The notes: generated by a model from the letters alone, not told the origin. A DNA stretch of 64,000 nucleotides from Patescibacteria group bacterium (GCA_035506195.1 DATJPV010000048.1:2011-66010); one strand, 5' to 3'. Shown: positions 2,072-59,248, counted from the first letter of the stretch. Program-made: numbers and translations.

Positions 2072-2074
2072 TCT

Positions 2075-6089: not shown

Positions 6090-6102
6090 GCCGAACTTCC
6101 TT

Positions 6103-20207: not shown

Positions 20208-20238
20208 AATCCGTATGATATAAATACGGATTTTTTTT
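20208..20238 (+). terminator. hairpin (9-bp AT-rich stem AATCCGTAT/ATACGGATT, 7-nt loop) followed by T8, immediately abutting the ATG at 20239
   Basis: The sequence reads aatccgtat gatataa atacggatt tttttt ATG. It may be an intrinsic terminator or a leader attenuator. Confidence 0.4.
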
Positions 20239-44209: not shown

Positions 44210-45673
44210 ATGAAATTATCCCCCGAAATTTTTACGCTCCTGAAAGGCACCGCTTCTTTTGCCGCGAAGAAAAAGGCCGCCGTCTACGTGGTGGGCGGGT
44301 TCCTGCGGGATATGCTCCTGAAACGGGAAAAAGAAAATCCCGACATCGATTTTTCCATTGCGCAGGGGGCCATCCGCTTCGGCAGGCAGCTGTCCAGGGA
44401 GCTTTCCTGCGGCTACGTGGTTTTGGATAAAGAGCACGGCTGTTGCCGGCTGGTCAAAAAGATAGACGGCAGCCTTTGTACCCTTGATTTTACGGACTTT
44501 CGCGGGCCGAGCCTTGAAGATGACCTGTTGCACCGCGATTTTACCATCAATGCCATGGCCGCGGAACTGAATACCGTCTTAGGCAGCCGTTGCCTTGACG
44601 GGGGGCTCATCGATCCTTTCGGCGCCAGGCATGACCTCGGCCGCAAGTTGATCCGCATGGTCAACCCCAAGGCCTTCCAGGAGGACCCCTTAAGGATGCT
44701 GCGGGCCTTTAGCCTGGCCTGCACGTTCGGCTTCAAGATCCATCCGCAGACCCTGCGCTGCATACGGGCGACTGCGCCGAAATTATCCCGTGTTTCCTTC
44801 GAGCGCATACGCGAAGAATTGTTCAAGATATTGGAGAGCCCCCAGGCCGGCGTATCCCTTACGCAGATGGATCGCCTGAAGCTGTTGCCGGTGGCCTTTC
44901 CGGAGATAGCGATGATGCGCGGAGTACGCCAAGGCCCGTATCACCACCTGGACGTCTGGAAACACAGCCTGGAAACCGTCAGACAGCTCGACATGCTCCT
45001 GCAACAGCTTCGCCGTAACAAGGATGTGAAGGAGTATCTGGACGAAGCCATTACTTCGACGAGAAAACGCCGGGGGTTGCTTAAATTAGGGGCGCTGCTG
45101 CACGATATCGGCAAACCCAAGGCATTGCGCCGCAGAGACGGCAAGACGATATTTCACGGCCACGAGCGGGTAGGAGTCGGGTTCACGCGCCAGATCAGCA
45201 GGCGCCTGAGGCTCTCTAACGACGAAACACAGGCGCTTGAGCGTATGGTGATGTGGCACCTGCGCCCCGGCTACCTTGCGGATAATGCGCAGATAAGCAG
45301 CCGCGCCAAGTTCAGGTATTTCCGGGACACGCAGAAAGAGGGGGCATCCGTGCTCTTGCTTTCTTTGGCAGACCAGCGCGCGACCTGCGGGCCGCTGACC
45401 ACCCGGGAATCCCGGCTTCAGCATGAGAAGGCATGCCTTCAGTTGATCAAGGAATATTTCCGCAGGCAGAAAGAGGCTTCTCCTGCGCGCCTGATCAACG
45501 GGGATCAGCTCATGCGCAGCCTCAAGATACCTCCTTCGCCGCTTGTCGGCAGGATACTGCTTCAGATCGAAGAGCTGCAGGCGATCGGCAAGGTCAAGAA
45601 TGCGCAGCAGGCGCTGGCGGCCGCGCGGAAGATAGAGAAAGAGATGTCTGCCCTGACTCGTAAACGACGCTAA
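44210..45673 (+). CDS. cca: CCA-adding tRNA nucleotidyltransferase / poly(A) polymerase family with HD domain
   Basis: The Pol-beta head motif is VVGGFLRDMLL..DIDF, and there is an HD domain (GALLHDIGK). Confidence 0.8.
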   Translation: MKLSPEIFTLLKGTASFAAKKKAAVYVVGGFLRDMLLKREKENPDIDFSIAQGAIRFGRQLSRELSCGYVVLDKEHGCCRLVKKIDGSLCTLDFTDFRGPSLEDDLLHRDFTINAMAAELNTVLGSRCLDGGLIDPFGARHDLGRKLIRMVNPKAFQEDPLRMLRAFSLACTFGFKIHPQTLRCIRATAPKLSRVSFERIREELFKILESPQAGVSLTQMDRLKLLPVAFPEIAMMRGVRQGPYHHLDVWKHSLETVRQLDMLLQQLRRNKDVKEYLDEAITSTRKRRGLLKLGALLHDIGKPKALRRRDGKTIFHGHERVGVGFTRQISRRLRLSNDETQALERMVMWHLRPGYLADNAQISSRAKFRYFRDTQKEGASVLLLSLADQRATCGPLTTRESRLQHEKACLQLIKEYFRRQKEASPARLINGDQLMRSLKIPPSPLVGRILLQIEELQAIGKVKNAQQALAAARKIEKEMSALTRKRR

Positions 45674-45737
45674 AATTCTCTACGAGAATTTTAGCGTACT
45701 CGTCAGGATTTCGCTAGATTTAAAATCAAGGAGCTCA
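45667..45737 (+). promoter_or_regulatory. repeated intergenic leader element, copy A: 14-bp perfect hairpin (ACGCTAAAATTCTC/GAGAATTTTAGCGT) + TCGTCAGGATTTCGCT box + SD
   Basis: The hairpin engulfs the cca stop codon. The conserved box lies at 45700-45715, and the ATG of the PilZ gene is at 45738. Confidence 0.45.
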
Positions 45738-46142
45738 ATGCTAAGCGGATATCGGAAATATTCGGGGAATGACCGGCGCAGGTTCCAGCGGCTTGATCTG
45801 AACGTGGTCGTCATGTACAGCGTCGCCGAGCCCCTGACCATCCGCGCCACCGTCGGAGACAGGGAGATAGAGGCGACGATGCTCAACTTGAGCCTCGGCG
45901 GCATGGGCCTGCTTACCGAATACAACCTTCCCGTCTGGACGCTTCTGGACATACGCTTCACCCTGACCAGGATCACCAAGGAAGGCACGGTAGGCATGTA
46001 CGGTCCGATGCGGATACGCGGGGAGGTCCGTTCCAACGTCCCGCTGGACGAAAAGGAATACCGCCTGGGGATCTCTTTTATCAGGATCGAAGACAAAGAC
46101 AAGGTGGGGTTGACGGAGTTCTTAAAAAGCATTATGAGGTGA
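45738..46142 (+). CDS. PilZ-domain protein (c-di-GMP receptor-like)
   Basis: It has an RRFQR N-terminal motif and a D..SLGGMGL motif (RxxxR ... DxSxxG). Confidence 0.7.
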   Translation: MLSGYRKYSGNDRRRFQRLDLNVVVMYSVAEPLTIRATVGDREIEATMLNLSLGGMGLLTEYNLPVWTLLDIRFTLTRITKEGTVGMYGPMRIRGEVRSNVPLDEKEYRLGISFIRIEDKDKVGLTEFLKSIMR

Positions 46143-46768
46143 TCATGGGTGCGTATAAAACCAGGACCATGGCAGGCATCGAGCAGAAGATGGAAGACAT
46201 GGATGAGTCGTCATTCCGGTACCACGTGTTGTCTACCGCAAAAAATTTCAAGACCTCCTGGGTAGAGCTGGGCAGGTCCCTGTACGCGGTATGGAAAGAC
46301 AAGATGTTCAAGGAATGGGGTTTCATTTCCTTTGACGCCTACACAGCCAAAGAGATCGGCATACGTAAACAGACCGCGCTGAAGCTGCTGCGTTCTTACT
46401 ACTTCCTGGAAAAGGAAGAGCCTGCGCACCTGGTTTCCGCTCCCGCCTACGAATCGGTGGACCTTTTACGCCTGGCCAAGAATAAGAAAGAACTGGACGC
46501 GCAGGATTACGACCATCTTAAAAAAGAAGTATTCGACAAGGGCAGGGACGCCCGCGAAATAAAGAAAGATCTGTCCGCGCTTATCCGGCAGAGGCAGGAG
46601 CTCGACCCTCAAGAGGCCTGGGAAAAAAAGAGGATGGCTACCGTCAAGAGGTTCCTGGGAGCGCTTAAGGGCCTTAAGCAGGAGATCGAAAGCGCAAAGC
46701 TGCTTCCTGCCTCGGTTATCAAGGACGCCGAAGCGCTCATAAAGAAACTGGAAGAGGAGATCGCCTAA
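46139..46768 (+). CDS. hypothetical cytoplasmic protein, Lys/Glu-rich C-terminus
   Basis: It is translationally coupled to the PilZ gene. There are no motifs. Confidence 0.4.
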   Translation: MIMGAYKTRTMAGIEQKMEDMDESSFRYHVLSTAKNFKTSWVELGRSLYAVWKDKMFKEWGFISFDAYTAKEIGIRKQTALKLLRSYYFLEKEEPAHLVSAPAYESVDLLRLAKNKKELDAQDYDHLKKEVFDKGRDAREIKKDLSALIRQRQELDPQEAWEKKRMATVKRFLGALKGLKQEIESAKLLPASVIKDAEALIKKLEEEIA

Positions 46769-46769
46769 G

Positions 46770-47312
46770 ATGGTAAAAAGGATCGCTACGGTTATCGCGT
46801 TGTGCGCATGCGTGCAGGCCTTTCCTCTCGGCATCGCCTGCCGCGCTTCGCAGGTCTCTTACGAAGAGTTAAGGCGTACCTATATCCCGCAGTCCAGCCC
46901 CGAGGCAAGTTACCGCCTGGAATATGAGTTGATGCTCAAGGGTATGTATTGTTATGACCTGCCGCTGTTTGACCCCGACTGGCGCAGGAAGGGCCGAGAA
47001 ATCATTTTTTCTTCGGCTTACCGCCAGACGGCACAGGGTTTTGACGCGCCTTTTATGAGCCGCATCGAGGGAAGCTACGCAGTCATCTATTATCCCGACA
47101 ATAAAGACCTGGGTCCGGTGTTCCTGTACCGCGACCGCTCAGGCTGGGTCGTCGACAGGACCAGCGTTATGGATAATATTACCTACAGTTCTTCGAATAA
47201 AGAATGGTTTGCCCAGGACGGCGACTATCCCTACCTTGCCATACTCAAACGGGCTTTTTCCATGGAAAAGGTCAGGCTTAATAGCGGAGCCTGGGCCTAT
47301 AGAGTAAGATAG
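46770..47312 (+). CDS. secreted hypothetical protein
   Basis: It has a signal peptide MVKRIATVIALCACVQA. Confidence 0.4.
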   Translation: MVKRIATVIALCACVQAFPLGIACRASQVSYEELRRTYIPQSSPEASYRLEYELMLKGMYCYDLPLFDPDWRRKGREIIFSSAYRQTAQGFDAPFMSRIEGSYAVIYYPDNKDLGPVFLYRDRSGWVVDRTSVMDNITYSSSNKEWFAQDGDYPYLAILKRAFSMEKVRLNSGAWAYRVR

Positions 47313-47328
47313 GGGCCGGGGATAATCC

Positions 47329-48483
47329 GTGAAACGGCTAAGCATTTTTTTCATTATCGTTGTATTGTGCGCAGGGGCTGTAGCGGTAGCGCTGCCGACG
47401 GTGGCGGCACACTATGCCTTGGGCCGGCTGCGGTCGGTTTTCCCCGGCGCCCAGGTAACCATAGGCGGCTGCCGTCATCGTTTCGCCGGATGGCTGGCGT
47501 TTTCGGATATCAACATCAAAAAAGGCCGCCTCTATGCGTTCTGCCTCAAGCAGCTGCGCATTGACTATAGCTTGCCCTTGCTGTTGCGCGGGGTCATCCC
47601 CGAGGTCGTCGTGCAGGGCGGCTCGGTCAATATTACTACCCCCGGTCAGCAACTCAGCCAGTTTTCCAAACAACTTGTCTTAGGCAGCGGCCGGGGCGCA
47701 AGCGTGCAGATCGCCTCCTGCCGGGTCTCGGATATCGATTGGGATATCGACACGCAGGATTGGCAGTGCAAGGGCAGTATTTCGGTAACAGCGCAACCGC
47801 TGGCATTGCGTCTGGTAGGTCTGCGGCTTGCCTGCGCCTACCTCCAAGGCCAGGGCCTGCGCCTGGATGATGTATTTCTCAAGGTTGACCGCGGCTCATC
47901 GCCGGGAGAAGTGCGCGTCGAGCGGCTGAAATACAACAAGGTCAAAATAGAACAGATCAAAGGCACGGTGGAGCTGACGGATAGACTCCTTTCCTTTAAA
48001 TCGGTAACCGGCCAGGCCCTCGGCGGCAGCCTGACCGCCGACCTTGACCTTCAGATCGACAAGAACCCGTCATACCGTGCCAGGCTATCCGCTTCCCAGG
48101 TGGCCCTGGAGCGGATCACCGGCGACCTCGAGCTGGGAGAAAAGGTCCAGATGCGCGGAAAATTTTCCGGCGCGCTGGAGCTGGCCGGCCAAAACCTTAC
48201 GATGCACAACGTCACGGGAGGTTTTTCCCTGACCGGCGGCGCAGGCAACCTTACCATTAAAGATACCGACATGCTGCAGCGCCTGGCCCAGAATAACCAG
48301 CAGTCCATGGATATCCTGGTGGAAAATTTTAAAGATTACAATTTCGATACGGGCGTGGTAAAATTATTCCTTGATACACAGGGCGATCTGGTGCTTGCGG
48401 TTGACCTTGAAGGCAAAGCCGGCAAGCGCAATCTTGAAGTAGTAGTACACGACATGCAGTTTATCGGAAAGGGGGCACGATGA
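47329..48483 (+). CDS. N-terminally anchored periplasmic hypothetical protein (beta-rich)
   Basis: It has a single N-terminal TM then a soluble domain. An AsmA/YdbH-like function is possible but unsupported. Confidence 0.4.
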   Translation: MKRLSIFFIIVVLCAGAVAVALPTVAAHYALGRLRSVFPGAQVTIGGCRHRFAGWLAFSDINIKKGRLYAFCLKQLRIDYSLPLLLRGVIPEVVVQGGSVNITTPGQQLSQFSKQLVLGSGRGASVQIASCRVSDIDWDIDTQDWQCKGSISVTAQPLALRLVGLRLACAYLQGQGLRLDDVFLKVDRGSSPGEVRVERLKYNKVKIEQIKGTVELTDRLLSFKSVTGQALGGSLTADLDLQIDKNPSYRARLSASQVALERITGDLELGEKVQMRGKFSGALELAGQNLTMHNVTGGFSLTGGAGNLTIKDTDMLQRLAQNNQQSMDILVENFKDYNFDTGVVKLFLDTQGDLVLAVDLEGKAGKRNLEVVVHDMQFIGKGAR

Positions 48484-49040
48484 GAGTCTATTCTTTCGTA
48501 GCGGTGGGTTTGCTTTTGCTGTGGGTAGGCTGTGCGCGGGTAAGGGTGGAGGCTCCGAAAGAGCCTATCAAGGTAGATATCTCCATGCGCCTGGATATCT
48601 ATCAGCACGTGCAGAACGACCTCAACGATATCGAAAACATGGTTTCCGGCAAAGACAAGCACAGTTTGCTTGAGTACATTACGGCTACCGCCTATGCCCA
48701 GGAAGGCTTCTCTTCCGAGGTGGAACAGGCAGCCGGCCGGCGCAAAGACAGAAAGGCCGAGATCGTCTCCTGGGAGAGCAAGAAGGTGATCGGCGAGAAC
48801 AGGATGGGACTGCTTGAGGTCAGGGATGCCGCTTCGGCGGATGCCGGCGTCAACAGCCTCGTCAGCAAAGAGAACAGCGACCGCATGGTCATCTACCGCG
48901 CCGTCGCCGCCAAGAACGGCGTTGCCGTCGACCAGGTCCAGAAGATGCACGCCAAACGCCTGCAGTCGGACGCTCCGGCAGGCACGCCCATCGAAGTGCT
49001 CGATGCATCAGGGGGCCAATACCAGTGGAAGTCCCGGTAG
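48480..49040 (+). CDS. putative lipoprotein
   Basis: It has a lipobox LLWVGCA and is translationally coupled to the upstream gene. Confidence 0.4.
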   Translation: MRVYSFVAVGLLLLWVGCARVRVEAPKEPIKVDISMRLDIYQHVQNDLNDIENMVSGKDKHSLLEYITATAYAQEGFSSEVEQAAGRRKDRKAEIVSWESKKVIGENRMGLLEVRDAASADAGVNSLVSKENSDRMVIYRAVAAKNGVAVDQVQKMHAKRLQSDAPAGTPIEVLDASGGQYQWKSR

Positions 49041-49063
49041 CGTTCCTGCGCGTAAAAAAGTAA

Positions 49064-49091
49064 TTGCAGAAACCTTTTTTTATTGTATAAT
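49064..49091 (+). promoter_or_regulatory. sigma70 consensus-like promoter TTGCAG-N16-TATAAT for the OmpA-LysM gene (near-leaderless)
   Basis: TTGCAG is at 49064-49069 and TATAAT at 49086-49091. The ATG at 49102 is ~4 nt after the predicted TSS. Confidence 0.45.
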
Positions 49092-49101
49092 GGAGAATAC
49101 T

Positions 49102-50064
49102 ATGTATACGAAAAGATATGCGACACTAGCGATCAGTTGTGCGGCGCTGTTGTGTGTTCTGTCGTCCTCCTGGGTATTGGCCGCTCAAGGCCCGGAGGAA
49201 AAGAAGAAGGAAGAACAGGCGCTGCAAGAGCGTTTTAAGTGGTGGCCCACCGATGCCCAGCCTGCTCCGGTAAAGGATCAGGAAAGGGGAGGATACTGGT
49301 GGTGGCCTCAGCAGCCCGGCCAGGTAGGCCCCCTGTGGGGCAACCGCGGTTACTGCTATGTGCGCAAGCTCATCTTCGATTATAAGGAAGAGGAGCTTCC
49401 TCCTCCCAAGCCGCAGGAACTCAGGCCTTCGCTTTTGATCAAAAAGATCATTAAGAACGTCAAGGTCTATTTCGACTACGATAAAGCCGACATCAGGGAC
49501 GATACTTCCTCTATTTTGAGGCAGGCGGCCAAGTCCTTAAAGAGCAATCCCGAAGCCAGCATCTTGATCACCGGCAATTGCGACGCGCGCGGCTCCGAGT
49601 CTTATAATCTAAAGCTCGGTAAACAGCGGGCCCAGGCAGTCAGGCAGTTCATTCTGGACCAGGGGATACCCGAAGAAAGGATACGCATCGTCAGCCGCGG
49701 CAAGCTTGACGCGGTAGCGCCGGTCAAAGACCTGGTGGGGATGCAGAAAGACCGCAATGCCCAATTCATGATCGCCGAGGTCGAAGAGGTCATGATCCCT
49801 TATACGGGACAACCGCCCACGCCCGAAGCCCAGCCGATCGAGGAGGGCAAGTACCTTCAGGAAACCAAAGAAGAGGTTACCGGCCAGATCAAGGTCTCGA
49901 CCAAAGATTACGTAGTGCAGAAAGGCGATACCTTATGGAAGATCGCGGAGAAGGAATACGGGAAGCCTTACCGCTGGAAATATCTTTACGAGCTCAATAA
50001 AGACAAGGTCAAAAATCCCAACAAGCTCAAGGTCGGTCAGACACTAACCATCCCGGTCGAATAA
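49102..50064 (+). CDS. OmpA-family peptidoglycan-binding protein with C-terminal LysM domain
   Basis: It has a signal peptide. The OmpA_C motif is ILITGNCDARGSESYNLKLGKQRAQAV, and the LysM domain is YVVQKGDTLWKIAEKEYG...L.ELN. The track ORF 48814-50064 is the same frame extended upstream. Confidence 0.75.
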   Translation: MYTKRYATLAISCAALLCVLSSSWVLAAQGPEEKKKEEQALQERFKWWPTDAQPAPVKDQERGGYWWWPQQPGQVGPLWGNRGYCYVRKLIFDYKEEELPPPKPQELRPSLLIKKIIKNVKVYFDYDKADIRDDTSSILRQAAKSLKSNPEASILITGNCDARGSESYNLKLGKQRAQAVRQFILDQGIPEERIRIVSRGKLDAVAPVKDLVGMQKDRNAQFMIAEVEEVMIPYTGQPPTPEAQPIEEGKYLQETKEEVTGQIKVSTKDYVVQKGDTLWKIAEKEYGKPYRWKYLYELNKDKVKNPNKLKVGQTLTIPVE

Positions 50065-50080
50065 TCTAACGACATTCTGT

Positions 50081-50572
50081 ATGAGTGCGCAGCGTGCGAG
50101 TGATATGACTCTGTCTCGGTTATTGAAAGAGAAGTTCATCAATTTAGAATTACAGGGTACCGACAAGAACGAAGTTATTACTGAATTGGTCGACCTTATC
50201 GCCAAATCCGGCAAGATCAAGAACAAGAAGGCGTGCGTGCGTTCGGTGCTGGAGCGCGAAAAGCTTGGCTCGACGGGGATAGGTAACGGGGTCGCCATAC
50301 CGCACGCAAAATCAAAGTCTGTACGCGACTTTATCCTGGCCTTTGCCCGCAAGGATGACGGTATCGATTTCGGGGCCCTGGACGGGGAGAAGTCTTATCT
50401 GTTTTTTACTCTCGCCTCTCCCGAAGACGAGGTCGGAGGGCACTTAAAGATACTGGCTGAAATATCCCGCCTGGTAAAGGATAAGTTCATCGTCGATCTT
50501 TTACGCAGGGCAAAGACCAAAAAAGAGATCCTGAAGATCGTTACCGGGATAAGCAGCCAGTCTACGCATTAA
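50081..50572 (+). CDS. ptsN: PTS EIIA(Ntr)-type (fructose/mannitol-family IIA) protein, PtsN-like
   Basis: It has the phospho-His region GIGNGVAIPHAK and an overall PtsN-like length and composition. Confidence 0.7.
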   Translation: MSAQRASDMTLSRLLKEKFINLELQGTDKNEVITELVDLIAKSGKIKNKKACVRSVLEREKLGSTGIGNGVAIPHAKSKSVRDFILAFARKDDGIDFGALDGEKSYLFFTLASPEDEVGGHLKILAEISRLVKDKFIVDLLRRAKTKKEILKIVTGISSQSTH

Positions 50573-50618
50573 GCATCCGCCTCGCGCCTTTTGCACCAGA
50601 CCAACAACATACACGGAT

Positions 50619-51806
50619 ATGTATAAAAAAATAGCGGTGTGCCTGTTTTTTACGCTGTTGGGCTCCTGCGGCCTGCCGTACGCATACGGGCAGCAACAGC
50701 AAGCAAAGCTGCCTACGCTCATGGTCTTCTATTCCTTAAGCTGCCATCGTTGCGAAGAGCTAAGGAGTCAGGTGCTCCCCGCGATCGAAAAGAAATTCGC
50801 CGGTAAGGTCAATGTCGCGTATTTTGAGATCGGAGATATCCAGAATTATAAATTATTGGTGGGCCTGAAAGAAAAACACGGCGTGAAGGGCTCTCAGGCC
50901 CTGCCGGTATTCTACTTCCAGGGGCACTTTCTGTCAGGAGAAGGGGATGTGCGGGCCGCCCTGGAGTGGCTGCTGAGCGCTTCTTCCGGCCAGGCCCAGG
51001 CTGCGCCGGATGCGGAAAATATCGACCTGGTCGCGCATTTTAAAAGTTTTGCGCCCCTGGCGGTAGTCAGCGCCGGCCTCATCGACGGGATAAACCCCTG
51101 CGCCTTTACGGTCATTGTCTTCTTTATCTCTTTTCTTGCCCTGCAGGGGTACCGCAGGAGGCAGCTGGCGGCGATCGGTTTGGTCTTTATCCTGGCGGTC
51201 TTCCTGACTTACCTGTTGATCGGGGTGGGGTTGTTCAGCTTTTTGTACCAGTTCCGGCATTTCTGGATTTTTGTGAAAGCGTTCAATCTTTCCGTGGGCG
51301 TTTTAAGCCTGCTGCTGGGCGTATTGGCTGTGTACGACCTCGTTAGGTTTAAGAAGACAAAGCAGACCGACGGCATGGCCCTGCAATTGCCGCAGGCGGT
51401 TAAAAATCAGATCCATGCGGTTATCGGCCGTTATTACCGCCGGGGCAAGGAAAACGGCCAGGTCATTCCTGTCGCCGACCGGCCTCTGGCCCCTTTACTG
51501 GCCAGCGCCCTGGTGACCGGCTTCCTGGTTTCTATCCTGGAGGCGGTATGCACCGGGCAGGTGTATCTGCCGACGATAACGTTTGTAATGAAGACCTCGT
51601 CCTTAAAAATACAAGCCCTGGGGTATCTGGTGCTGTATAATGCGATGTTCATTGCGCCGCTGGTGGCAATATTCCTCTTTGCGCTGTTAGGGGTTACTTC
51701 CGCCAAGTTCTCCGACGTGCTGCGCCGAAATTTCCTGGCGGTAAAGATCCTCATGGCGGTTTTATTTTTCAGCCTGGGAGCTTTCTTGCTTCTGGGGAAA
51801 GGGTAG
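50619..51806 (+). CDS. thioredoxin-like domain fused to DsbD/CcdA-type thiol:disulfide transporter membrane domain
   Basis: There is an N-terminal soluble part with CHRC (CxxC). The TM core has GINPCAF and a second conserved Cys in LEAVCTGQ. Confidence 0.55.
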   Translation: MYKKIAVCLFFTLLGSCGLPYAYGQQQQAKLPTLMVFYSLSCHRCEELRSQVLPAIEKKFAGKVNVAYFEIGDIQNYKLLVGLKEKHGVKGSQALPVFYFQGHFLSGEGDVRAALEWLLSASSGQAQAAPDAENIDLVAHFKSFAPLAVVSAGLIDGINPCAFTVIVFFISFLALQGYRRRQLAAIGLVFILAVFLTYLLIGVGLFSFLYQFRHFWIFVKAFNLSVGVLSLLLGVLAVYDLVRFKKTKQTDGMALQLPQAVKNQIHAVIGRYYRRGKENGQVIPVADRPLAPLLASALVTGFLVSILEAVCTGQVYLPTITFVMKTSSLKIQALGYLVLYNAMFIAPLVAIFLFALLGVTSAKFSDVLRRNFLAVKILMAVLFFSLGAFLLLGKG

Positions 51807-51808
51807 AC

Positions 51809-52186
51809 ATGAAAAGGAACGGTTTATTGGCCGCGGCATTCCTGGCGTGTATGCTCGTAAGCTCTTATGCGCAGTCAGAGGACCCCTACCTTTGGGATTT
51901 CGGCCGCGTCAGGCCGGCTCAAGTGCTGACGCATACTTTTATGCTGAAGAATGAAACGGGACAACCCCTGACGATCAAGGATATCAGCACTTCCTGCGGA
52001 TGCACCGCTTTCCGGGCGACCAAGACACTGCTTGCTCCCGGAGAAAGCACCGCGATCGAGGTCACCTTTAATACGAAAGGATACTCAGGGCATACTTCGC
52101 AGTTCGTCTATGTGTATACCGATGCGCTTAACAATTCGGTCATTAAATTCACCGTTACCGCGACGATAACGATGGAGGTACAGTAG
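51809..52186 (+). CDS. DUF1573-domain secreted protein
   Basis: It has a signal peptide, and the pair LWDFG...ISTSCGCT is typical of DUF1573 (PVC-abundant). Confidence 0.6.
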   Translation: MKRNGLLAAAFLACMLVSSYAQSEDPYLWDFGRVRPAQVLTHTFMLKNETGQPLTIKDISTSCGCTAFRATKTLLAPGESTAIEVTFNTKGYSGHTSQFVYVYTDALNNSVIKFTVTATITMEVQ

Positions 52187-52207
52187 ATTTGTCCTGGCTC
52201 GCACCAT

Positions 52208-52307
52208 GCGTCAAAATTTCCTACGGTCCCCTTACGAAGACAGGTAATTTTGACGCGTTCGCCAGGATTTCGCTAAACAAAAGCTTTAGGTGCTCAAGGA
52301 GGTCAGA
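52208..52307 (+). promoter_or_regulatory. repeated intergenic leader element, copy B: hairpin (GCGTCAAAATT/AATTTTGACGC, 27-nt loop) + TCGCCAGGATTTCGCT box + SD
   Basis: The box lies at 52259-52274, and the SD CAAGGAGG is followed by the htpX ATG at 52308. Confidence 0.45.
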
Positions 52308-53270
52308 ATGTTTTTTCTAAAACTAAGGATGTGGCTTCTGGTTACGGTACTTTTTGCGATCATCTATGCCGTTATCACGATGCTCGGCACGTCTATGGGT
52401 TTTGGCGGGTTCTATTTTTACCTGGCCATATCGCTGGCAATGATGCTGCTGCAGTATATGATCGGGCCAAAGATCGTGGAATGGACCATGCAGGTCAAGT
52501 ACGTGCGCCGGCAGGAATACCCGCGCCTGTTCCAGATGGTGGAAAGCCTGGCCAACAAGGCCGGGATCCCCGTGCCGAAGATCGGCATAGCCCAGATTGC
52601 CATCCCCAACGCCTTTGCTTTCGGCCGCGGCGTCAATGACGGTCGCGTCTGCGTCACCGAGGGCATCCTGCGGCTCCTGGATGAAAATGAGCTCAGGGCA
52701 GTGCTGGGCCACGAGCTTACGCACCTGAAAAACCGCGATGTCCTGACCATTACCCTGCTTTCGGTCATCCCGATGATCCTGTACCGCATCGCCTGGAATT
52801 TCCTGTTTTTCGGCCGCCGGCGCGATGAGCGGGGCAGCAATACCGTATTGATCGGCCTGGTCGCCTTTTTATTCTACTTTATCACCAATCTTCTGGTGCT
52901 GTACGCCTCGCGCATCCGCGAATATTTTGCCGATAGAGGCTCGGTATTGCTCGGCAACAGCCCTTCCGCCCTTGCCTCCAGCCTCTATAAACTGGTATAC
53001 GGTTCGGCGCGCATGGACCAGGAGACCCTGAAGGAGACCGAAGGGCTCAAAGCCTTCTTTGTCAACGATCCTTCTCAGGCGTTGAATGAGATCAAAGAGC
53101 TCAGGCAGCTTGACCTGGATAAAAGCGGGACCCTTGACCCGAATGAGCTGGCCCTTTTGCGCAGTAAAACCATACGTTTGAGCTTTGGAGACAAGATGCT
53201 TGAGCTTTTGAGCACCCATCCGAATATGCTTAAGCGCATCAAAAGGCTCTCTGAATATCCCAGAGCTTAA
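52308..53270 (+). CDS. htpX: M48-family zinc protease HtpX
   Basis: It has the HExxH motif LGHELTHLKNRD and 4 TM helices. The track ORF 52290-53270 is the same frame extended upstream. Confidence 0.85.
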   Translation: MFFLKLRMWLLVTVLFAIIYAVITMLGTSMGFGGFYFYLAISLAMMLLQYMIGPKIVEWTMQVKYVRRQEYPRLFQMVESLANKAGIPVPKIGIAQIAIPNAFAFGRGVNDGRVCVTEGILRLLDENELRAVLGHELTHLKNRDVLTITLLSVIPMILYRIAWNFLFFGRRRDERGSNTVLIGLVAFLFYFITNLLVLYASRIREYFADRGSVLLGNSPSALASSLYKLVYGSARMDQETLKETEGLKAFFVNDPSQALNEIKELRQLDLDKSGTLDPNELALLRSKTIRLSFGDKMLELLSTHPNMLKRIKRLSEYPRA

Positions 53271-53291
53271 ATCCGGAATGTAGGCCCTACA

Positions 53292-53328
53292 GGGGACGCT
53301 TTTCTCTCGGCAGAAGCGTCCCCTTTTC
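53292..53328 (+). terminator. rho-independent terminator after htpX
   Basis: A perfect 10-bp stem GGGGACGCTT/AAGCGTCCCC (53292-53301 and 53314-53323) is followed by TTTT. Confidence 0.6.
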
Positions 53329-53329
53329 A

Positions 53330-53358
53330 TTGACATAACCCGAATTCTACTATATAAT
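53330..53358 (+). promoter_or_regulatory. perfect sigma70 consensus promoter TTGACA-N17-TATAAT for lysS (leaderless)
   Basis: TTGACA is at 53330-53335 and TATAAT at 53353-53358. The ATG at 53368 is ~3 nt from the predicted TSS and there is no SD. Confidence 0.55.
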
Positions 53359-53367
53359 TATAAAACT

Positions 53368-54810
53368 ATGGATATAAGTGAAATTATCCAGCAAAGAAAG
53401 CATAAATTGGATACGCTGGTGGCTAAAGGCGTGCCGGTCCACGCCGGTCCCTTTGAGGCCAGGGTCGACATTGCCGCAGCTTTGGCCGAATTTCAGGAAG
53501 GCAAAAAGGTTAGCCTTTCCGGCAGGATTATGGCCCAGCGTTCGCACGGCAAGGTCGTCTTCGCGGACCTGCGCGACGCTACTGCCCGCATCCAGTTGTA
53601 TTTGAAAGCCGATTTTCTGGGCCAGGAAAAGTTTGGGCTGCTTGAGAACTTGGACATCGCCGATATTATCGCCGTCAAGGGAGAGCTTTTTAAGACGCAC
53701 ACCGGAGAATTCACGGTCAAGGTAGAAGATTTTGCCATACTTGCCAAGTCCTTAAGGCCCCTGCCGGAGAAGTGGCACGGCCTCAAGGATGTGGAGGTGC
53801 GCTATCGCCAGCGGTATCTGGACCTGGTAGCCAACGAAGAGGTCAAAAAGGTATTCGTCCTGCGTTCCCGGATCATCAAGGCCGTCAGGGATTTTCTGGA
53901 TAGCCGGGGGTTCCTGGAAGTAGAGACCCCGATGATGCACGATATCGCCGGAGGCGCGGCAGGCAGGCCTTTCGAGACCTTCCACAACGAATACAAACGG
54001 CGGCTGTACCTGCGCATCGCCCCCGAGCTTTACCTGAAGCGCCTTCTGGTGGCAGGCCTTGACCGCGTATACGAGATAAACCGCAGCTTCCGTAACGAAG
54101 GGGTCTCTACCCGGCATAACCCGGAGTTCACCATGCTTGAGGTGTACTGGGCGTATGCCGACTACCATAGCATGATGCAGTTGACCGAAGAACTTTTTTC
54201 GACGGTAGCCGCGCAGGTGCTGGGTAGCACCCAGATCGCCTACCAGGGCAAGTCCATTGACCTGACGCCGCCCTGGACCAGGCGCTCCTTTGCGCAGATG
54301 GTCAAAGAGAAGTTCGGGATATCTGCCGATGACGAAGCGGCTCAGATGTTGCAAAAACTGCAGGCCAAGGGTTTTGCCAAAGACAAAAGCCGGCTGACCC
54401 GTTCCCAGGTAGCCAAGATCATCGAAGACCTCCTGGAGCAGGACATGAGCATGAATCCGACCTTTGTGACGGATTATTTTACCAGCCTGTGCCCCTTAGC
54501 CAGGACCAGGAAAGACGACCCGTTGATCTCGGAGCGTTTCGAGCTTTATATCGCCGGCCTTGAAGTGGCGAATGCCTACTCCGAATTGAACGACCCCCTG
54601 GAACAGCGCCGGCGTTTTGAAGAAGAGATCAAAGACGCTCCGGCAGAAGAAAAAAAGTGCGTTGACGAAGAGTATGTGACCGCCCTGGAACACGGCATGC
54701 CTTGCGCAGGCGGCCTGGGGGTGGGCATCGACCGCCTGGTGATGCTGCTTGCGGACCAGGCCTCGATCAGGGACGTGATCCTTTTCCCGCTCCTGCGTCC
54801 CGAGGCTTAA
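53368..54810 (+). CDS. lysS: lysine--tRNA ligase (class II)
   Basis: It has an N-terminal OB anticodon-binding domain and class II motifs (FRNEGVSTRHNPEFTMLE, GGLGVGIDRLVMLL). Confidence 0.9.
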   Translation: MDISEIIQQRKHKLDTLVAKGVPVHAGPFEARVDIAAALAEFQEGKKVSLSGRIMAQRSHGKVVFADLRDATARIQLYLKADFLGQEKFGLLENLDIADIIAVKGELFKTHTGEFTVKVEDFAILAKSLRPLPEKWHGLKDVEVRYRQRYLDLVANEEVKKVFVLRSRIIKAVRDFLDSRGFLEVETPMMHDIAGGAAGRPFETFHNEYKRRLYLRIAPELYLKRLLVAGLDRVYEINRSFRNEGVSTRHNPEFTMLEVYWAYADYHSMMQLTEELFSTVAAQVLGSTQIAYQGKSIDLTPPWTRRSFAQMVKEKFGISADDEAAQMLQKLQAKGFAKDKSRLTRSQVAKIIEDLLEQDMSMNPTFVTDYFTSLCPLARTRKDDPLISERFELYIAGLEVANAYSELNDPLEQRRRFEEEIKDAPAEEKKCVDEEYVTALEHGMPCAGGLGVGIDRLVMLLADQASIRDVILFPLLRPEA

Positions 54811-54816
54811 AAAGAA

Positions 54817-56013
54817 ATGAAGACCGAACTTTTTATAGGGTGGCGTTATCTGTTCACCAGGAGAAAAGAGAAATTCATTTCCCTGATCAGCGTCATTTCG
54901 ATCCTGGGGATCGCCATCGGCGTCTGCGCGCTTATCGTCGTTATCGGCGTGATGACCGGCTTTGACCGTGACCTGCATGACAAGATCATCGGCAATTACT
55001 CCCATATTTCGATATCCGGTTACGGAGGCATAGGCGCAAAAGAATACGACCGCATCATCCTGCAGGTGGCCCCGAACCCGCACGTAAAAGGCATCAGCCC
55101 TTACGTGCTGGGGCAGGTCCTGATCAAGGCCGACGGCAAATTTTTTCCCGTGACCATCAAAGGGATAAAGCCATATACAGAAACGCAGGTCACCAAGCTC
55201 AAAGACTATCTCATCCAGGGGAATATCGACCAGCTGCAGGCTGACCCCGAAGCGGTCTTTATCGGGAAAGAGCTGGCGGTGTCCCTGGGGATGACAGTCG
55301 GCTCGACGTTGACGGTCTATTCGCCCGTGGGCAAGCAACATACCTTGCGCGTGGCGGGCATATTTTATTCCCGGATGTACGATTACGACATGAACCTTGT
55401 CTTTACCCCGCTTGAGACCGCGCAGGCGATCCTCGGTGCCGGCGACAAGGTCAGCGTGGTGGCGGTAAGGCTGGATAATGCCTATGCCGCGGATAAGGTC
55501 AGAAAAGAATTAAGCGCGGCGGTAGGCTCGGAATATGCCTTGAAGACCTGGATCGAGATGAACCCGAATTTCTTCGCGGCATTGAAGCTTGAGAAGCTGA
55601 CGATGTTCATCATCCTGACGCTGATCGTGCTGGTAGCATCCTTTAATATCATCAGCACTCTCATCGTCATGGTCGTCGAGAAGACCAAGGATATCGGGGT
55701 ATTGAAGGCAGTGGGGATGAAAGCCTCGGGTATCCGCAGGATCTTTACGTATGCGGGCCTGATCATGGGCGTCCTGGGGACGCTTCTGGGCACTGCCGCA
55801 GGCCTGGGCCTGTGTTTGCTGTTGCAGCGCTACCAGTTCATCAAGCTGCCGCAGGACATATATTATATCGACAGCCTGCCGGTTTCCGTGCAGCTGTGGC
55901 CGGATATTATCCTGATCGTGCTGGCGGCGATGTGCATTACGCTGGTCTCGACTATCTATCCAGCGATTAAAGCTGCAAGCCTGAAGCCGGTGGATGCCTT
56001 AAGATACGAGTAA
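54817..56013 (+). CDS. lolE: lipoprotein-releasing system permease (LolC/LolE, FtsX-like)
   Basis: It has the FtsX/MacB-type topology, a conserved N-terminus MKTELFIGWRYLFTRRKEKFIS, and a C-terminal FtsX domain. Confidence 0.8.
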   Translation: MKTELFIGWRYLFTRRKEKFISLISVISILGIAIGVCALIVVIGVMTGFDRDLHDKIIGNYSHISISGYGGIGAKEYDRIILQVAPNPHVKGISPYVLGQVLIKADGKFFPVTIKGIKPYTETQVTKLKDYLIQGNIDQLQADPEAVFIGKELAVSLGMTVGSTLTVYSPVGKQHTLRVAGIFYSRMYDYDMNLVFTPLETAQAILGAGDKVSVVAVRLDNAYAADKVRKELSAAVGSEYALKTWIEMNPNFFAALKLEKLTMFIILTLIVLVASFNIISTLIVMVVEKTKDIGVLKAVGMKASGIRRIFTYAGLIMGVLGTLLGTAAGLGLCLLLQRYQFIKLPQDIYYIDSLPVSVQLWPDIILIVLAAMCITLVSTIYPAIKAASLKPVDALRYE

Positions 56014-56015
56014 CG

Positions 56016-56696
56016 GTGATGCCGCTTATCGAAGCAAGAAATGTCCATAAGGTGTATAATCACAGCGTCAAGGCCTTGCACGTCTTGCGCGGAGTCGACC
56101 TAAAAATAGAGCAGGCGGCTTTCATTGCCTTGGTCGGCCCTTCGGGCGCGGGCAAGTCGACCCTGCTGCATATACTCGGCGGCCTGGATAATCCCAGCCG
56201 CGGAGAGGTCGTCTTTGAGGGCCGCAACCTGTATGGCCTGCAAGACGCCGAGATTTGCCGGATACGCAACGGCAGTATCGGGTTTGTATTCCAGTTCTAT
56301 CATCTGCTGCCCGAGTTTACGGTGTTGGAAAACGTACTCCTGCCGGGGCTCATCAACTCTCAGGAGCGCGGCAATAGCGCGCAAGCGCACCGCGGCGCCC
56401 TTGAGCTGTTGCAGCAAGTGGGACTGGCCGCCAGGGCCGGCCATTTTCCGGCGCAGCTTTCCGGAGGGGAAAAGCAGCGGGTTGCGATCGCCCGGGCCCT
56501 GGTCAACGGCCCGCAGCTGCTCTTATGCGACGAACCGACAGGCAACCTTGATTCCGCCAATGGCAACGAGATCATCGCGCTCATCAAGCGCTTGAATAAA
56601 GAGAACCGCATGACGGTAGTGCTGGTGACGCATAACCCGGAACTGGCAAAGGCAGCGGACCATATTTATAGATTAAACGACGGAGTATTGGCGTGA
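56016..56696 (+). CDS. lolD: lipoprotein-releasing system ATP-binding protein
   Basis: It has Walker A GPSGAGKST, the signature LSGGEKQRVAIARAL and Walker B LLLCDEPTGNLD. Confidence 0.85.
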   Translation: MMPLIEARNVHKVYNHSVKALHVLRGVDLKIEQAAFIALVGPSGAGKSTLLHILGGLDNPSRGEVVFEGRNLYGLQDAEICRIRNGSIGFVFQFYHLLPEFTVLENVLLPGLINSQERGNSAQAHRGALELLQQVGLAARAGHFPAQLSGGEKQRVAIARALVNGPQLLLCDEPTGNLDSANGNEIIALIKRLNKENRMTVVLVTHNPELAKAADHIYRLNDGVLA

Positions 56697-56716
56697 TGCT
56701 CAGCCTGACTCACGCG

Positions 56717-56797
56717 CAGCCCAAAATTCTCTGCGATAATTTTGGGCTGTTCGTCAGATTTCGCTGAATAAAAGCTTAAGGTTCTCAAGGAGGGTCT
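56717..56797 (+). promoter_or_regulatory. repeated intergenic leader element, copy C: hairpin (CAGCCCAAAATT/AATTTTGGGCTG, 9-nt loop) + TCGTCAGATTTCGCT box + SD
   Basis: The box lies at 56751-56765, and the SD CAAGGAGGG is followed by the ATG at 56798. Confidence 0.45.
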
Positions 56798-57667
56798 ATG
56801 AAAGTTTACATTAACGGCAAGATGTATGAGAAGAGCATGGCCAAGGTTTCCGTGTTTGACCACGGTCTTTTATACGGCGACGGGGTCTTCGAAGGCATCC
56901 GCGCCTATAACGGGCTGGTCTTTAAATTGAGAGAGCATATCGACCGGCTCTACGAGTCCGCCCATTCGATCATGCTGGATGTGTCGATGGCCAAGCAGGA
57001 GATGATCAATGCGGTGGTCAAGACCCTGAAGGCGAATAATCTCAAGGACGCCTATATCCGCCTTATCATTACCCGCGGCGAAGGCGACCTCGGGCTTGAC
57101 CCGCGCAAATGCAGGGGGAATGCGACCGTCATCATTATCGCCGACAAGGTGGCGTTGTACCCTGAACGGCTCTATAAAGAGGGGCTTTCCATCATCACCG
57201 TGCCTACGATCAGGAACCTTCCGGAGGCCCTGAACCCTCAGATCAAATCCCTGAATTACCTGAACAATATCCTGGCCAAGATCGAGGCGATCAATTCCGG
57301 CTCCGACGAGGCGATCATGCTCGATTCCCTCGGCTACGTGGCGGAATGCACCGGAGACAATATCTTTATCGTCAAATCGAACCACCTCTACACGCCGCCG
57401 CAATGCATGGGGACCCTGCGCGGTATCACCCGCGACACAGTGTTGGAGATCTCCAGGCGGGACAGGATCCCGGTGCACGAGCACGTGCTGACGCGCCATG
57501 AGGTGTTCATTTCCGACGAATGTTTCCTGACCGGTACCGCGGCGGAGATCATTCCCGTCGTCAAGGTCGACGGCCGGACGATCGGAAGCGGCAAGCCGGG
57601 CAAGATGACGTTGAGCCTCATCAAAAAGTTCCGGCAGGTCACCAAGACCGAAGGGGTCAAATATTGA
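56798..57667 (+). CDS. class IV aminotransferase (branched-chain amino acid / D-amino acid aminotransferase family)
   Basis: PLP fold-type IV; the N-terminal LLYGDGVFEGIRAY region and the ~290 aa length match the class. Confidence 0.75.
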   Translation: MKVYINGKMYEKSMAKVSVFDHGLLYGDGVFEGIRAYNGLVFKLREHIDRLYESAHSIMLDVSMAKQEMINAVVKTLKANNLKDAYIRLIITRGEGDLGLDPRKCRGNATVIIIADKVALYPERLYKEGLSIITVPTIRNLPEALNPQIKSLNYLNNILAKIEAINSGSDEAIMLDSLGYVAECTGDNIFIVKSNHLYTPPQCMGTLRGITRDTVLEISRRDRIPVHEHVLTRHEVFISDECFLTGTAAEIIPVVKVDGRTIGSGKPGKMTLSLIKKFRQVTKTEGVKY

Positions 57668-58194
57668 TGCTGTGCGATATCTGTAATAAAAACCAGGCCA
57701 CCGTGCATCTGACCGAGATCATCGATGATCAGATGAACGAACTGCATCTGTGCGAGGAATGCGCCCGTCAGAAGAGCGCCCAGATGGAGCAGCAGTTCGG
57801 CTTAAGCGACCTTTTGGCTGGGATGGCGCAGTCCGAAAAGCCCAACGCGGAAAAAGAGGCCTTGAACCTGAAATGCCCCAGCTGCAAGCTTACCTACGCG
57901 GATTTCAAAAAGATAGGCCGGCTCGGCTGCGGCGACTGTTATGTGACGTTCAAGAGGTTTTTAAGCCCCCTGTTAAAAAGGATCCACGGCTCAAGCCAAC
58001 ATTTCGGCAAGACCCCGTTTAAGACGGGCGGCAAGGCCGTCAGGAAAAAGGCCGACCTGCAGGAACTGCGCGCCGGGCTTCAGAAGGCTATCGAAGCCGA
58101 GGATTTCGAAGAGGCGGCAAGGCTGCGCGACCAGATCAGAGAAATGGAAAGGCAGCAGCATAACGAAGGAAAGGCGACGGAACATGACGCTTGA
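57667..58194 (+). CDS. mcsA: McsA-like protein-arginine kinase activator (2 Zn-finger pairs + UVR motif)
   Basis: It has CDICN...CEEC and CPSC...CGDC motifs, and a UVR domain FEEAARLRDQIREME. The ATG overlaps the upstream stop (TGATG). The track ORF 57520-58194 is the same frame extended upstream. Confidence 0.75.
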   Translation: MLCDICNKNQATVHLTEIIDDQMNELHLCEECARQKSAQMEQQFGLSDLLAGMAQSEKPNAEKEALNLKCPSCKLTYADFKKIGRLGCGDCYVTFKRFLSPLLKRIHGSSQHFGKTPFKTGGKAVRKKADLQELRAGLQKAIEAEDFEEAARLRDQIREMERQQHNEGKATEHDA

Positions 58195-59233
58195 TGAATT
58201 GCTGCATCATTCCAGCGAATGGCTGAAGAGTACCGGCCCCAATTCCGATATCGTTATCTCAAGCCGCATCCGGCTGGCCAGGAATCTCGATAAATTCCCT
58301 TTTCCGCACTGGGCGTCTAAAAAGCAGGGCGAAGAGGTCCTGCTTGCCATCGAAGGGGCGGTTTCGCGCGTAGAGTACCTGAAGAATACGACGGTATTCC
58401 ATCTGGCGGACTTAGACAGCGTGGATAAACAGTTCCTGGTCGAAAGGCACCTGATGTCGCATGAACACGCCCAGAAGACAAACCATAAAGCGGTCATCAT
58501 CGATAGCGAAGAGATCGTGGCGATCATGGTCAACGAAGAGGACCACCTGCGCATGCAGGTCATGCAGTCGGGCTTTAACCTGCGGGGGGCATGGGAGATC
58601 ATCAACAGCATAGACGATGCCTTGGCAAAGGAGCTGCCCATCGCGTTCCTTCCGGAGTGGGGGTACCTGACGGCCTGCCCCACCAATACCGGCACCGGGA
58701 TGCGCGGCTCCGTTATGCTGCACCTGCCGGCCCTGGTGATGACCCGTCAGATCAACCGCGTGTTGGCGGCGATCTCTAAATTAAGCTTTACTACCCGCGG
58801 CCTGTACGGCGAAGGCACGGAAGCAACGGGTAATTTCTTTCAGATCTCTAATCAGGTATCGCTGGGCCATAGCGAAGACGAGATCATCGAGAACATCAAC
58901 GGCCTGATCCGGCAGATCATCGAGCAGGAGAATCAGGCGCGGGAAATGCTGATGCTGCGCAGCAAGGCGATGCTGGAAGACAGGATCAGCCGCGGCTTCG
59001 GGATCCTCAAGAGCGCGCACATCATTTCCAGCCAGGAGACGATCGAGCTTTTGTCTATGGTAAGGCTGGGCAGCGACCTCGGCCTGCTCAAGGATATCGA
59101 CCGCCGGTCGATAAACGAGCTTTTCATCGTCACCCAGCCGGCGCACCTGCAGAAGATCGAGAACAAAAGATTGAATTCCCAGGAACGCGACTTAAAACGC
59201 GCGGAGATCATCCGCGATAAATTGAAAACCTAA
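58184..59233 (+). CDS. mcsB: protein arginine kinase (ATP:guanido phosphotransferase)
   Basis: It has the phosphagen-kinase active-site signature CPTNTGTGMR, and its length and domain order match McsB. Confidence 0.85.
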   Translation: MTLDELLHHSSEWLKSTGPNSDIVISSRIRLARNLDKFPFPHWASKKQGEEVLLAIEGAVSRVEYLKNTTVFHLADLDSVDKQFLVERHLMSHEHAQKTNHKAVIIDSEEIVAIMVNEEDHLRMQVMQSGFNLRGAWEIINSIDDALAKELPIAFLPEWGYLTACPTNTGTGMRGSVMLHLPALVMTRQINRVLAAISKLSFTTRGLYGEGTEATGNFFQISNQVSLGHSEDEIIENINGLIRQIIEQENQAREMLMLRSKAMLEDRISRGFGILKSAHIISSQETIELLSMVRLGSDLGLLKDIDRRSINELFIVTQPAHLQKIENKRLNSQERDLKRAEIIRDKLKT

Positions 59234-59248
59234 CCACGGAGGCACTGA

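Follow-up and report, generated by a model that had tools for sequence, protein, structure and literature searches.

Three intercistronic elements as probable members of a small interspersed repeat family of Candidatus Omnitrophota

A stretch of 64,000 nucleotides from Patescibacteria group bacterium (GCA_035506195.1, DATJPV010000048.1:2011-66010), referred to at its full length as the window, carries in three of its intercistronic spacers a hairpin-forming element that ends in a Shine-Dalgarno (SD)-like tail. The three sites, termed copies A, B and C, probably belong to a lineage-restricted family of small intercistronic, interspersed repeats in the uncultured phylum Candidatus Omnitrophota. 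The element is most likely selfish or lightly domesticated, and it is not a riboswitch, promoter, terminator or operator. The family is previously undescribed and the first found for Omnitrophota in literature and Rfam searches: neither a full-text search of the literature nor Rfam yielded anything linking Omnitrophota with such repeats. It is set apart by an SD of its own, by a nested palindrome that is optional and always at one loop position, and by a heavy colonisation of ribosomal-protein operons.

An earlier note on this DNA, made from the sequence alone, had described the three sites as a thrice-repeated leader, and the strings quoted there for the three spacers are all present where it placed them. 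AAAATTCTCTrCGAkAATTTT is common to copies A and C, GATTTCGCT occurs in all three copies 13-14 nt 3' of AATTTT, and AAAAGCTTwAGGTkCTCAAGGAGG is common to copies B and C. The composite pattern AATTTT-N5-10-TCGYCAG-N0-1-ATTTCGCT gave exactly three matches in the window, all on the + strand, and none in 100 dinucleotide-preserving shuffles. A covariance model (R1) built from six copies scored the window copies at 86-104 bits (E-values of 1e-15 to 1e-20); with filters off, it found no fourth copy in the window. Chance similarity arising from a compositional bias near SD sequences, a caveat raised by the earlier note, is refuted by these values together with the homologous copies in other genomes described below, and we give it practically no credence, although the final AAGGAGG of copies B and C is an ordinary SD.

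A genome-wide covariance-model scan had been suggested in the earlier note. Run on other Omnitrophota contigs, with each relative's genome covered by stretches of ~20 kb, R1 revealed approximately 25 further units (loci L008, L018, L019, L029, L155, L156, L157 and L158). Their position at unrelated junctions agrees with the proposal of a dispersed motif rather than a pathway-specific riboswitch. No match at E<1 was obtained in 48 kb of the Omnitrophota loci L024, L026 and L028, and none at E<0.1 in 754 kb of viral contigs, where a looser tail pattern gave chance matches only. Exact-pattern scans of genome and metagenome collections returned 11 loci each, of which one and two, respectively, were real and the remainder chance; the real loci are L008, from an Omnitrophota metagenome-assembled genome (MAG), and the ribosomal-protein operon contigs L018 and L019. 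The closest homologues of the window HtpX are named Candidatus Omnitrophota/Omnitrophica, the source record being an NCBI MAG with the label 'Patescibacteria group', and the copy-bearing loci all belong to Omnitrophota by protein naming. At gathering thresholds, Rfam 15 had no match anywhere in the window; searched by E-value, copy A and L019:6450-6680 yielded only noise (13-20 bits, miRNA and CRISPR-DR models).

Gain, loss and exchange between relatives

Comparison of orthologous junctions showed that, over times comparable to species divergence, units are gained and lost, duplicated in tandem and swapped between loci. All three window junctions carry copies in the close relative L029 (HtpX 94% identical; copy A orthologue at L029:3257-3358). 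In L024, L026 and L028 (HtpX ~80-84% identical) the same three junctions span 10-72 nt, with a plain SD or no copy; overall, flanking genes in relatives without the element are 10-72 nt apart or overlap. The htpX junction, the site of copy B, is 16-48 nt long with a plain SD in L028, L026 and L024, and it contains one copy in L029 and two in tandem in L157 (HtpX 95% identical). At the copy C junction, L026 has 18 nt and L024 has 72 nt without a copy, L029 has a long form with a different inner palindrome (P2), and L157 has a short form. Filled and empty states were also observed in ribosomal-protein operons. The genes rplO and secY overlap in L019, and the same junction in L018 holds an insert of ~150 nt with the element; the map/infA junction spans 2-6 nt in L152-L156 versus 96 nt in L018, L019 and L158. 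Unit number differs even between very close strains, as the leuC/pilT junction holds three units in L019 and two in L158 though both loci encode an identical Map protein.

The inner palindromes are not bound to their junctions. Both tandem copies at the L157 htpX junction are long forms, the first with the P2 of window copy C (GCAGCCCAAAATTCTCTkCGATAATTTTGGGCTG) and the second with the P2 type of L029 copy C, and the ilvE junction of L157 itself has only a short form. Furthermore, the window and L029 differ in all three copies, AAAATT/AATTTT in the window standing against GAAATT/AATTTC in L029, a concerted difference that exchange between loci would explain. Among the candidates listed in the earlier note, the REP/MITE-like one (repetitive extragenic palindrome/miniature inverted-repeat transposable element) fits these filled and empty junctions, the exchange of hairpin modules between loci and the tandem arrays that vary between strains.

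Four independent metagenome contigs break off inside the element or at its border (L031:1-85, L164:1-85, L018:1-88 and L163:1-48), as expected for sequence that is repeated or hypervariable between strains. This suggests that the element breaks assemblies, being multi-copy or variable between strains. A TGCTCA-like or SD-like string stands on both sides of several copies (window copy C, L029 copies B and C, L008, and the S3/L16 copy of L158), and others are without it; these strings may be the remnant of a tandem tail, not a target duplication.

Architecture of the window copies and of the family

Each window copy consists of four parts: an outer stem (P1, CCTGRC/GYCAGG), the inner palindrome P2, the box ATTTCGCT, and an A-rich tail ending in the SD-like AGGWKCTCA, with ~15 A-rich bases between the box and AGGWKCTCA. 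The features are as follows.

45652-45737, + strand: copy A, long form, in the spacer between the CCA-adding enzyme gene and pilZ; covariance-model score 104 bits
45652-45657 / 45702-45707: copy A, outer stem P1
45667-45680 / 45684-45697: copy A, inner palindrome P2, a perfect 14-bp inverted repeat
45708-45715: copy A, box ATTTCGCT
45716-45737: copy A, tail, with AAGGAG at 45728-45733; pilZ ATG at 45738
52193-52307, + strand: copy B, long form with a 19-nt apical loop, in the spacer between the DUF1573 gene and htpX; 98 bits
52193-52198 / 52261-52266: copy B, P1
52208-52222 / 52242-52256: copy B, P2, inverted repeat
52267-52274: copy B, box
52288-52296: copy B, tail AGGTGCTCA, adjoining the SD of htpX itself (AAGGAGG, 52296-52302); ATG at 52308
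56697-56797, + strand: copy C, long form, in the spacer between lolD and the class IV aminotransferase gene; 86 bits
56697-56703: copy C, 5' flank TGCTCAG
56704-56709 / 56753-56757: copy C, P1
within 56709-56731 / 56735-56757: copy C, P2, inverted repeat
56758-56765: copy C, box
56778-56787: copy C, tail AAGGTTCTCA, adjoining the SD AAGGAGGG at 56787-56794; ATG at 56798

The outer stem encloses the hairpin recognised in the earlier note, which had placed the start of the element too late; the true starts are 45652, 52193 and 56697. Its further statement that the element begins at or over the upstream stop codon applies to copy A, which overlaps the TAA, and fails for copies B and C, which begin 7-8 nt past the stop. 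Within P1, one pair is A-U in copies A and C and G-C in copy B. The basal 4-6 bp of P2 are wholly different in each copy and still complementary (CGCT/AGCG, GCGTC/GACGC, CAGCCC/GGGCTG), and the AAAATT/AATTTT core forms the middle of the palindrome. The sense-strand folds of the three window copies were more stable than those of shuffles (z = -4.9, -2.4 and -3.0).

Pfam assignments identified the upstream gene products as a CCA-adding enzyme (A), a DUF1573 protein (B) and a LolD-like ABC ATPase (C), and the downstream ones as PilZ (A), the M48 peptidase HtpX (B) and a class IV aminotransferase (C). The last ~7 codons and the TAA stop (45671-45673, inside the inner stem) of the CCA-adding enzyme gene (44210-45673) are copy A sequence (45652-45673). 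The corresponding gene in L029 also ends inside the element, and the L026 homologue has a different C-terminus; the insertion thus rewrote the end of the protein. Directly 3' of the class IV aminotransferase gene lies an mcsA-mcsB-clpC cluster (both within 56798-61666), an arrangement shared by all syntenic Omnitrophota loci compared (L024, L026, L029 and L157); this cluster is best known from Firmicutes.

Across the family, the basic unit is a short form with a P1 of 6-8 bp (CCYGRC/GYCRGG), the loop UCGYAAAC...ACUCG, the box AUUUCRCU, ~15 A-rich bases and the SD-like UUAAGGUGYUCAA. The long form equals the short form plus P2 at one fixed point of the loop, between TCGYAAAC and (A/G)CTCG. P2 has a variable base of 4-6 bp, a conserved top (RAAATTYYC-loop-GRRAATTTY) and a loop of 3-19 nt. 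All three window copies are long forms, and many units elsewhere are short and lack the inner palindrome. The relationship is evident at the ilvE junction, where L157 reads TCGCAAC-G-CTCG versus TCGCAAC-C, a 45-nt palindrome and G-CTCG in L029. Tandem arrays with duplicated tails were found at leuC/pilT and S4/rpoA in L019 and L158 and at the htpX junction in L157. The distance between the half-sites AAAATT and AATTTT is 9-25 nt (these are absent in short forms) and that between CCTGRC and GYCAGG 10 to ~65 nt, and the spacing from ATTTCG to AGGTGC is nearly fixed across copies.

Units are densest within ribosomal-protein operons (S10, spc, alpha); one 20.7-kb stretch contains up to eight units at five junctions. 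With few exceptions they are flanked by co-directional genes of a single operon, reaching from just after or over the upstream stop codon to the downstream start, and are in sense orientation relative to the flanking genes at 10 of 12 distinct junctions. In L008, two copies, one well preserved (89 bits) and the other decayed, run antisense to the guaB-guaA-dnaE operon. A small conserved open reading frame (ORF) inside the element was found on neither strand. By inspection, an ATG overlaps the upstream TGA in copy C only and opens an ORF that ends in the box; it is not present in the L029 orthologue, and copies A and B have no such ORF.

The same operons hold other small conserved sequences. 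A second module, ATTCGCG..AACTTAC..hairpin..GTAAGTTAAGCGC..TTAAATG, is present in L018:2838-2878, L155:7960-8006 and L158:6570-6629; in several lineages it stands upstream of secY and rplR, either after the tail of the repeat or alone. Other short repeat families, unrelated to the element, occupy junctions of these ribosomal-protein operons in L155 (616-683, 1811-1854, 4550-4617), L156 (5570-5628, 6025-6085, 11079-11126, 16639-16743) and L158 (5904-6009). They include a direct repeat of the GTATGTAG/ATATAG type in L155 and, in L156 and L158, REP-like hairpins (CACCCCGCGC...GCGCGGGTG). It seems that small repeats generally colonise operon junctions in these Omnitrophota.

Conservation, proposed mode of action and rival explanations

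Conservation was evaluated in 17 copies. In total, 91.5% of the cells were paired and 19 of 24 pairs had changed on both sides, versus ≤6 in slid-partner controls, counts that are inflated by the fitting of the alignment (A3) to the model; no shuffle attained the observed score. Between the window copies and their L029 orthologues, pairing survives 17 double changes and is broken by only 3-4 changes. Identity amounts to 67% in paired columns, compared with 71.5% at four-fold degenerate sites of the flanking genes, 82% in the tail (p = 0.016) and 81-82% in the tail and unpaired core. The pairing is kept while the paired columns diverge; thus, the hairpin is maintained as its sequence drifts, and the tail is mildly constrained. 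However, whole palindromes move between loci, so that many of the apparently compensatory changes amount to the replacement of one self-complementary module by another, which weakens stepwise compensation as a proof of RNA structure. The search for compensatory changes proposed in the earlier note therefore has a divided outcome, with a covariation that is numerically strong and, being partly whole-palindrome replacement, no proof of an RNA function. Of 264 pairs in the core helices, 248 are Watson-Crick, and no more than three each are G-U and A-C. Such near-exclusive Watson-Crick pairing is more like a DNA palindrome than a helix of RNA only, and it suggests that the repeat carries the palindrome mainly as a feature of its DNA. 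The count of G-U versus A-C pairs (3 versus 3) gives no strand information, and the GC skew of these short loci simply tracks the coding strand, so that it does not separate replication from transcription orientation.

The element was also compared with known signals. A consensus scan of positions 45000-57500 detected no sigma-70-like promoter (TTGACA/TATAAT-like, 16-18 nt apart) in any copy, and none of the three copies was flagged as an intrinsic terminator in the same interval, where the post-stem ATTTCGCT holds only three T. The htpX/lysS spacer contains a canonical terminator at 53291-53324 (13-bp stem and T run) followed by a 12/12 TTGACA-17-TATAAT promoter at 53330-53358, and other intergenic regions of the window carry canonical promoters and terminators as well. 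The organism thus uses ordinary signals, the three copies lie inside transcription units, and 53291-53358 is a real operon boundary between copies B and C. The terminator-promoter cassette that the earlier note had listed is not supported, in view of the missing promoter and hairpin with T run in the copies and of this textbook pair nearby. Its alternative of an operator for a global regulator is not supported either, given palindrome half-sites spaced 3 to ~65 nt apart and the absence of the inner palindrome from the short form; for the same reasons, no fixed spacing and no inner halves in short forms, a dimeric-repressor operator was rejected. A CsrA site was discarded on account of the post-stem GGA, which is lost in window copy C and L008. 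By eye, box and tail fitted neither sigma-54 (GG-N10-GC), sigma-28, sigma-32, extracytoplasmic function (ECF) or SigB-type promoters nor CIRCE, CtsR, parS, boxA or IHF sites, comparisons with the usual consensus sequences that serve as a lead only.

The position of the tail points to a role in translation. The start codon follows 0-4 nt past the AAGGWG of the tail in pilZ (window, L029), infA (L019, L158) and rplP (L155, L156, L158), pilT starts 4 nt past the AAGGAGG of the last unit of its array, and in window copies B and C the tail adjoins the AAGGAGG of the gene itself. In the mechanism that we propose, the unit would be transcribed as part of the operon mRNA, and its tail would act as a portable ribosome-binding site that supplies or doubles that of the downstream gene; AAGGUGYUC can pair with ...GAUCACCUCCUUA, which we take to be the universal anti-SD at the 3' end of 16S rRNA. 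Where an insertion breaks tight translational coupling, the portable site would restore translation of the downstream gene, and a ribosome site of its own in place of the lost coupling would allow sense insertions to survive in essential operons (S10, spc, alpha). The hairpin probably forms in the mRNA and could serve as a decay barrier or processing site, by analogy with BOX and Correia repeats, for which roles of this kind are documented (PMC3049150; PMC2649163). The repeat may spread by a transposase or by exchange among its copies through recombination or gene conversion; the latter, using the conserved flanks as homology, can explain the P2 swaps. In L029 and L163 the gene caller placed the pilZ start at a downstream GTG (L029:3345-3413). 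The ATG right after the repeat tail gives an N-terminus like that of the window protein (MLSGYRKYSGNDRRR / MLGGYHRYSGNDRRR), and the annotated pilZ is thus probably too short at its start.

Several points weigh against a mobile repeat family. Neither a transposase nor terminal inverted repeats nor a clear target-site duplication emerged from the sequence covered, and the mobility of the element is deduced from presence/absence and module swapping only. Just three copies occur in the 64-kb window, the scans covered contig stretches and not whole genomes, and the pairing counts come from the inflating A3 alignment. The boxes are ~80-90% identical between lineages that differ by 12 points in G+C, which could reflect a host function, via a trans-acting binding partner, and not just mobility. 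Transcription of the element and use of its SD are read from sequence, and the antisense L008 copy (89 bits) is well kept at a place where its tail cannot act as an SD.

This box conservation is one of the arguments for an alternative that we consider unlikely but worth keeping in view, a cis-regulatory or processing RNA of the host. In polycistronic mRNA, hairpin and AUUUCRCU would be recognised by a trans-acting protein, either an endoribonuclease such as RNase III or RNase E/G or a regulator that binds RNA. Its cut or its binding would make the flanking cistrons independent of each other in stability and translation, and the repeat pattern would result from recruitment of one punctuation signal. 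Stacked on each other, the two stems reach roughly 22-27 bp, interrupted by small internal loops, the sense orientation prevails (10 of 12 junctions), tail and unpaired core exceed the four-fold degenerate sites in identity (81-82% versus 71.5%), and the S3/L16, S4/rpoA and S14/S8 junctions are recurrently filled in several lineages with covarying stems. The single-stranded box, which begins right at the 3' foot of the hairpin, reads RN/AUUU and resembles the preference of RNase E, which is a lead and not a test. Such a function is difficult to reconcile with close relatives that keep a plain SD at the same junctions without the element, with short forms whose 6-bp stems are not RNase III substrates, and with the antisense copies in L008; the low number of G-U pairs (3/264), the lack of an Rfam family match, and tandem arrays and module swapping, which are typical of repeats and not of fixed regulatory sites, also argue against it. 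Less probable still is an alternative-sigma promoter or a terminator-promoter cassette, in which ATTTCRCT and AGGTGY, 15-17 nt apart, would be the -35/-10-like elements and the hairpin would end the upstream transcript. Their nearly constant spacing, the position of the element always just 5' of a start codon and the stress-related htpX and ilvE-mcsAB-clpC cluster 3' of copies B and C would suit it. Apart from the scan results and consensus comparisons given above, it conflicts with the start codon 0-4 nt past the tail in several copies, which leaves no room for an SD-bearing leader if AGGTGY were the -10 element, with relatives that express the same genes from 16-28-nt junctions too short for a promoter, and with the location of elements within ribosomal-protein operons.

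The element may instead be a DNA-level site for a protein acting on hairpins or cruciforms (attC-type, HUH/Y1 REP-RAYT, nucleoid protein or gyrase), the SD-like tail being incidental; we regard this as improbable. The almost wholly Watson-Crick pairing, the conserved bases that flank and cap a stem with a freely varying base, the replacement of whole palindromes at a fixed loop point with no visible duplication, and the occurrence of both orientations relative to genes (L008) are in line with it. On the other hand, Pfam scans of ~38 of the ~60 window genes revealed no transposase, integrase or Y1 domain, the attC R'/R'' boxes and the REP GTAG head are absent, and the tail is conserved with the hairpin in every copy and used as SD at several genes. 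An integron attC site in particular was rejected, since the post-stem sequence is TTCGYCAG, not GTTRRRY, the R'/R'' boxes (GTTRRRY / RYYYAAC) are lacking, and the "cassettes" between copies would be 4.5-6.5 kb of housekeeping operons. Two bolder readings, which even jointly appear doubtful, are a domesticated phylum-wide punctuation system of operon mRNAs and a self-targeting nested mobile hairpin. In the punctuation version, a dedicated protein could recognise the loop, the box and the top of P2 and process or insulate polycistronic mRNAs, including those of ribosomal-protein operons; this would give all downstream cistrons one standard leader with its ribosome site. In the nested version, the inner palindrome could be a tiny mobile hairpin aimed at one exact loop position of the outer repeat; to our knowledge, a nested self-targeting element of this kind has not been described before.

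Nearly all characterised small interspersed repeats come from cultured Proteobacteria, Firmicutes and Actinobacteria. The Omnitrophota family is unusual in having its own ribosome-binding site and in colonising the most tightly packed, conserved operons (S10, spc, alpha). If it is purely parasitic, it illustrates how essential operons can be invaded by a repeat and stay intact, and it accounts for broken assemblies and mis-called starts in MAGs of Omnitrophota; a use by the host would make it a natural insulator separating cistrons. In both cases, it provides a strain-typing marker and an annotation rule for Omnitrophota genomes.

Two further regions of the window were recorded. At 20100-20238, a promoter-like TTGAAA...TAGTATACT is followed by a leader of ~80 nt that ends in a hairpin (AATCCGTAT...ATACGGAT) and eight T, directly 5' of the ATG (20239) of a family-2 glycosyltransferase gene; this leader has no Rfam match and may be an attenuator or small leader RNA. 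Positions 523-9520 hold a run of paralogous genes in which an N-terminal GDSL-like lipase region is fused to TPR repeats, with a glycosyltransferase interspersed.

Comparison with known repeats

Neisseria CREE (Correia) are co-transcribed, their hairpin can be bound or cut by RNase III, and they alter expression of adjacent genes (PMC2649163). As an intergenic hairpin-forming repeat of ~100-150 bp, CREE are similar to the Omnitrophota element, which however is without their 26-bp terminal inverted repeats, TA target duplication, IHF site and outward promoters; in the window copies, neither terminal repeats nor promoter-like sites were found, and IHF was compared by eye only. Nor are there terminal inverted repeats of the MITE kind: the copies have only internal stems, and the 3' ~45 nt (box and tail) have no inverted 5' partner. 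A functional analogy is offered by the RNase III hairpins between the early genes of phage T7, which are likewise two-tier hairpins with internal loops located between cistrons, 5' of the next ribosome site. The Omnitrophota element differs from these in being a repeat of a cellular genome that is gained and lost, its short forms are too short for RNase III, and its cleavage would be hypothetical.

Pneumococcal BOX elements are found in a narrow lineage, are co-transcribed with their neighbours, have a slow turnover and are judged largely parasitic (PMC3049150). Like BOX, RUP and SPRITE, the element is a small, modular, structured repeat with variable internal modules, here the hairpin, the optional nested palindrome, the box and the tail. 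Its sequence is unrelated, and BOX has no built-in ribosome-binding site and is not concentrated in ribosomal-protein operons. With REP/BIME, it shares extragenic palindromes after the stop codons of operon genes, Watson-Crick stems and genome-specific variants, and the three inverted repeats of the window correspond to the imperfect extragenic palindromes of 20-40 nt that characterise REP. The GTAG head is absent at either foot of the window copies, inverted pairs (REPIN/BIME) do not occur, multiple copies being always direct tandems, and the unit includes a conserved non-palindromic tail of ~45 nt. No RAYT gene was seen in the ~20-kb stretches covered per genome.

MIRUs are thought to insert at start codons, with the downstream gene staying translated via a coupled small ORF (PMC12548453). 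The element resembles them as a short intercistronic repeat in sense orientation, often in tandem with variable unit number, and in both families the downstream gene keeps ribosome access. It differs in how this access is achieved, since MIRUs have a small ORF with a -4 overlap, whereas the Omnitrophota element has in-frame stops and an SD-like sequence instead; a small ORF overlapping both the upstream stop and the downstream start is not present in copies A-C. In addition, MIRUs are without a conserved-hairpin core, share no sequence similarity with the element and belong to another phylum. Thus, the element fails the defining sequence features of MIRU, BOX/RUP/SPRITE, REP/BIME and Correia repeats, and it behaves like them.

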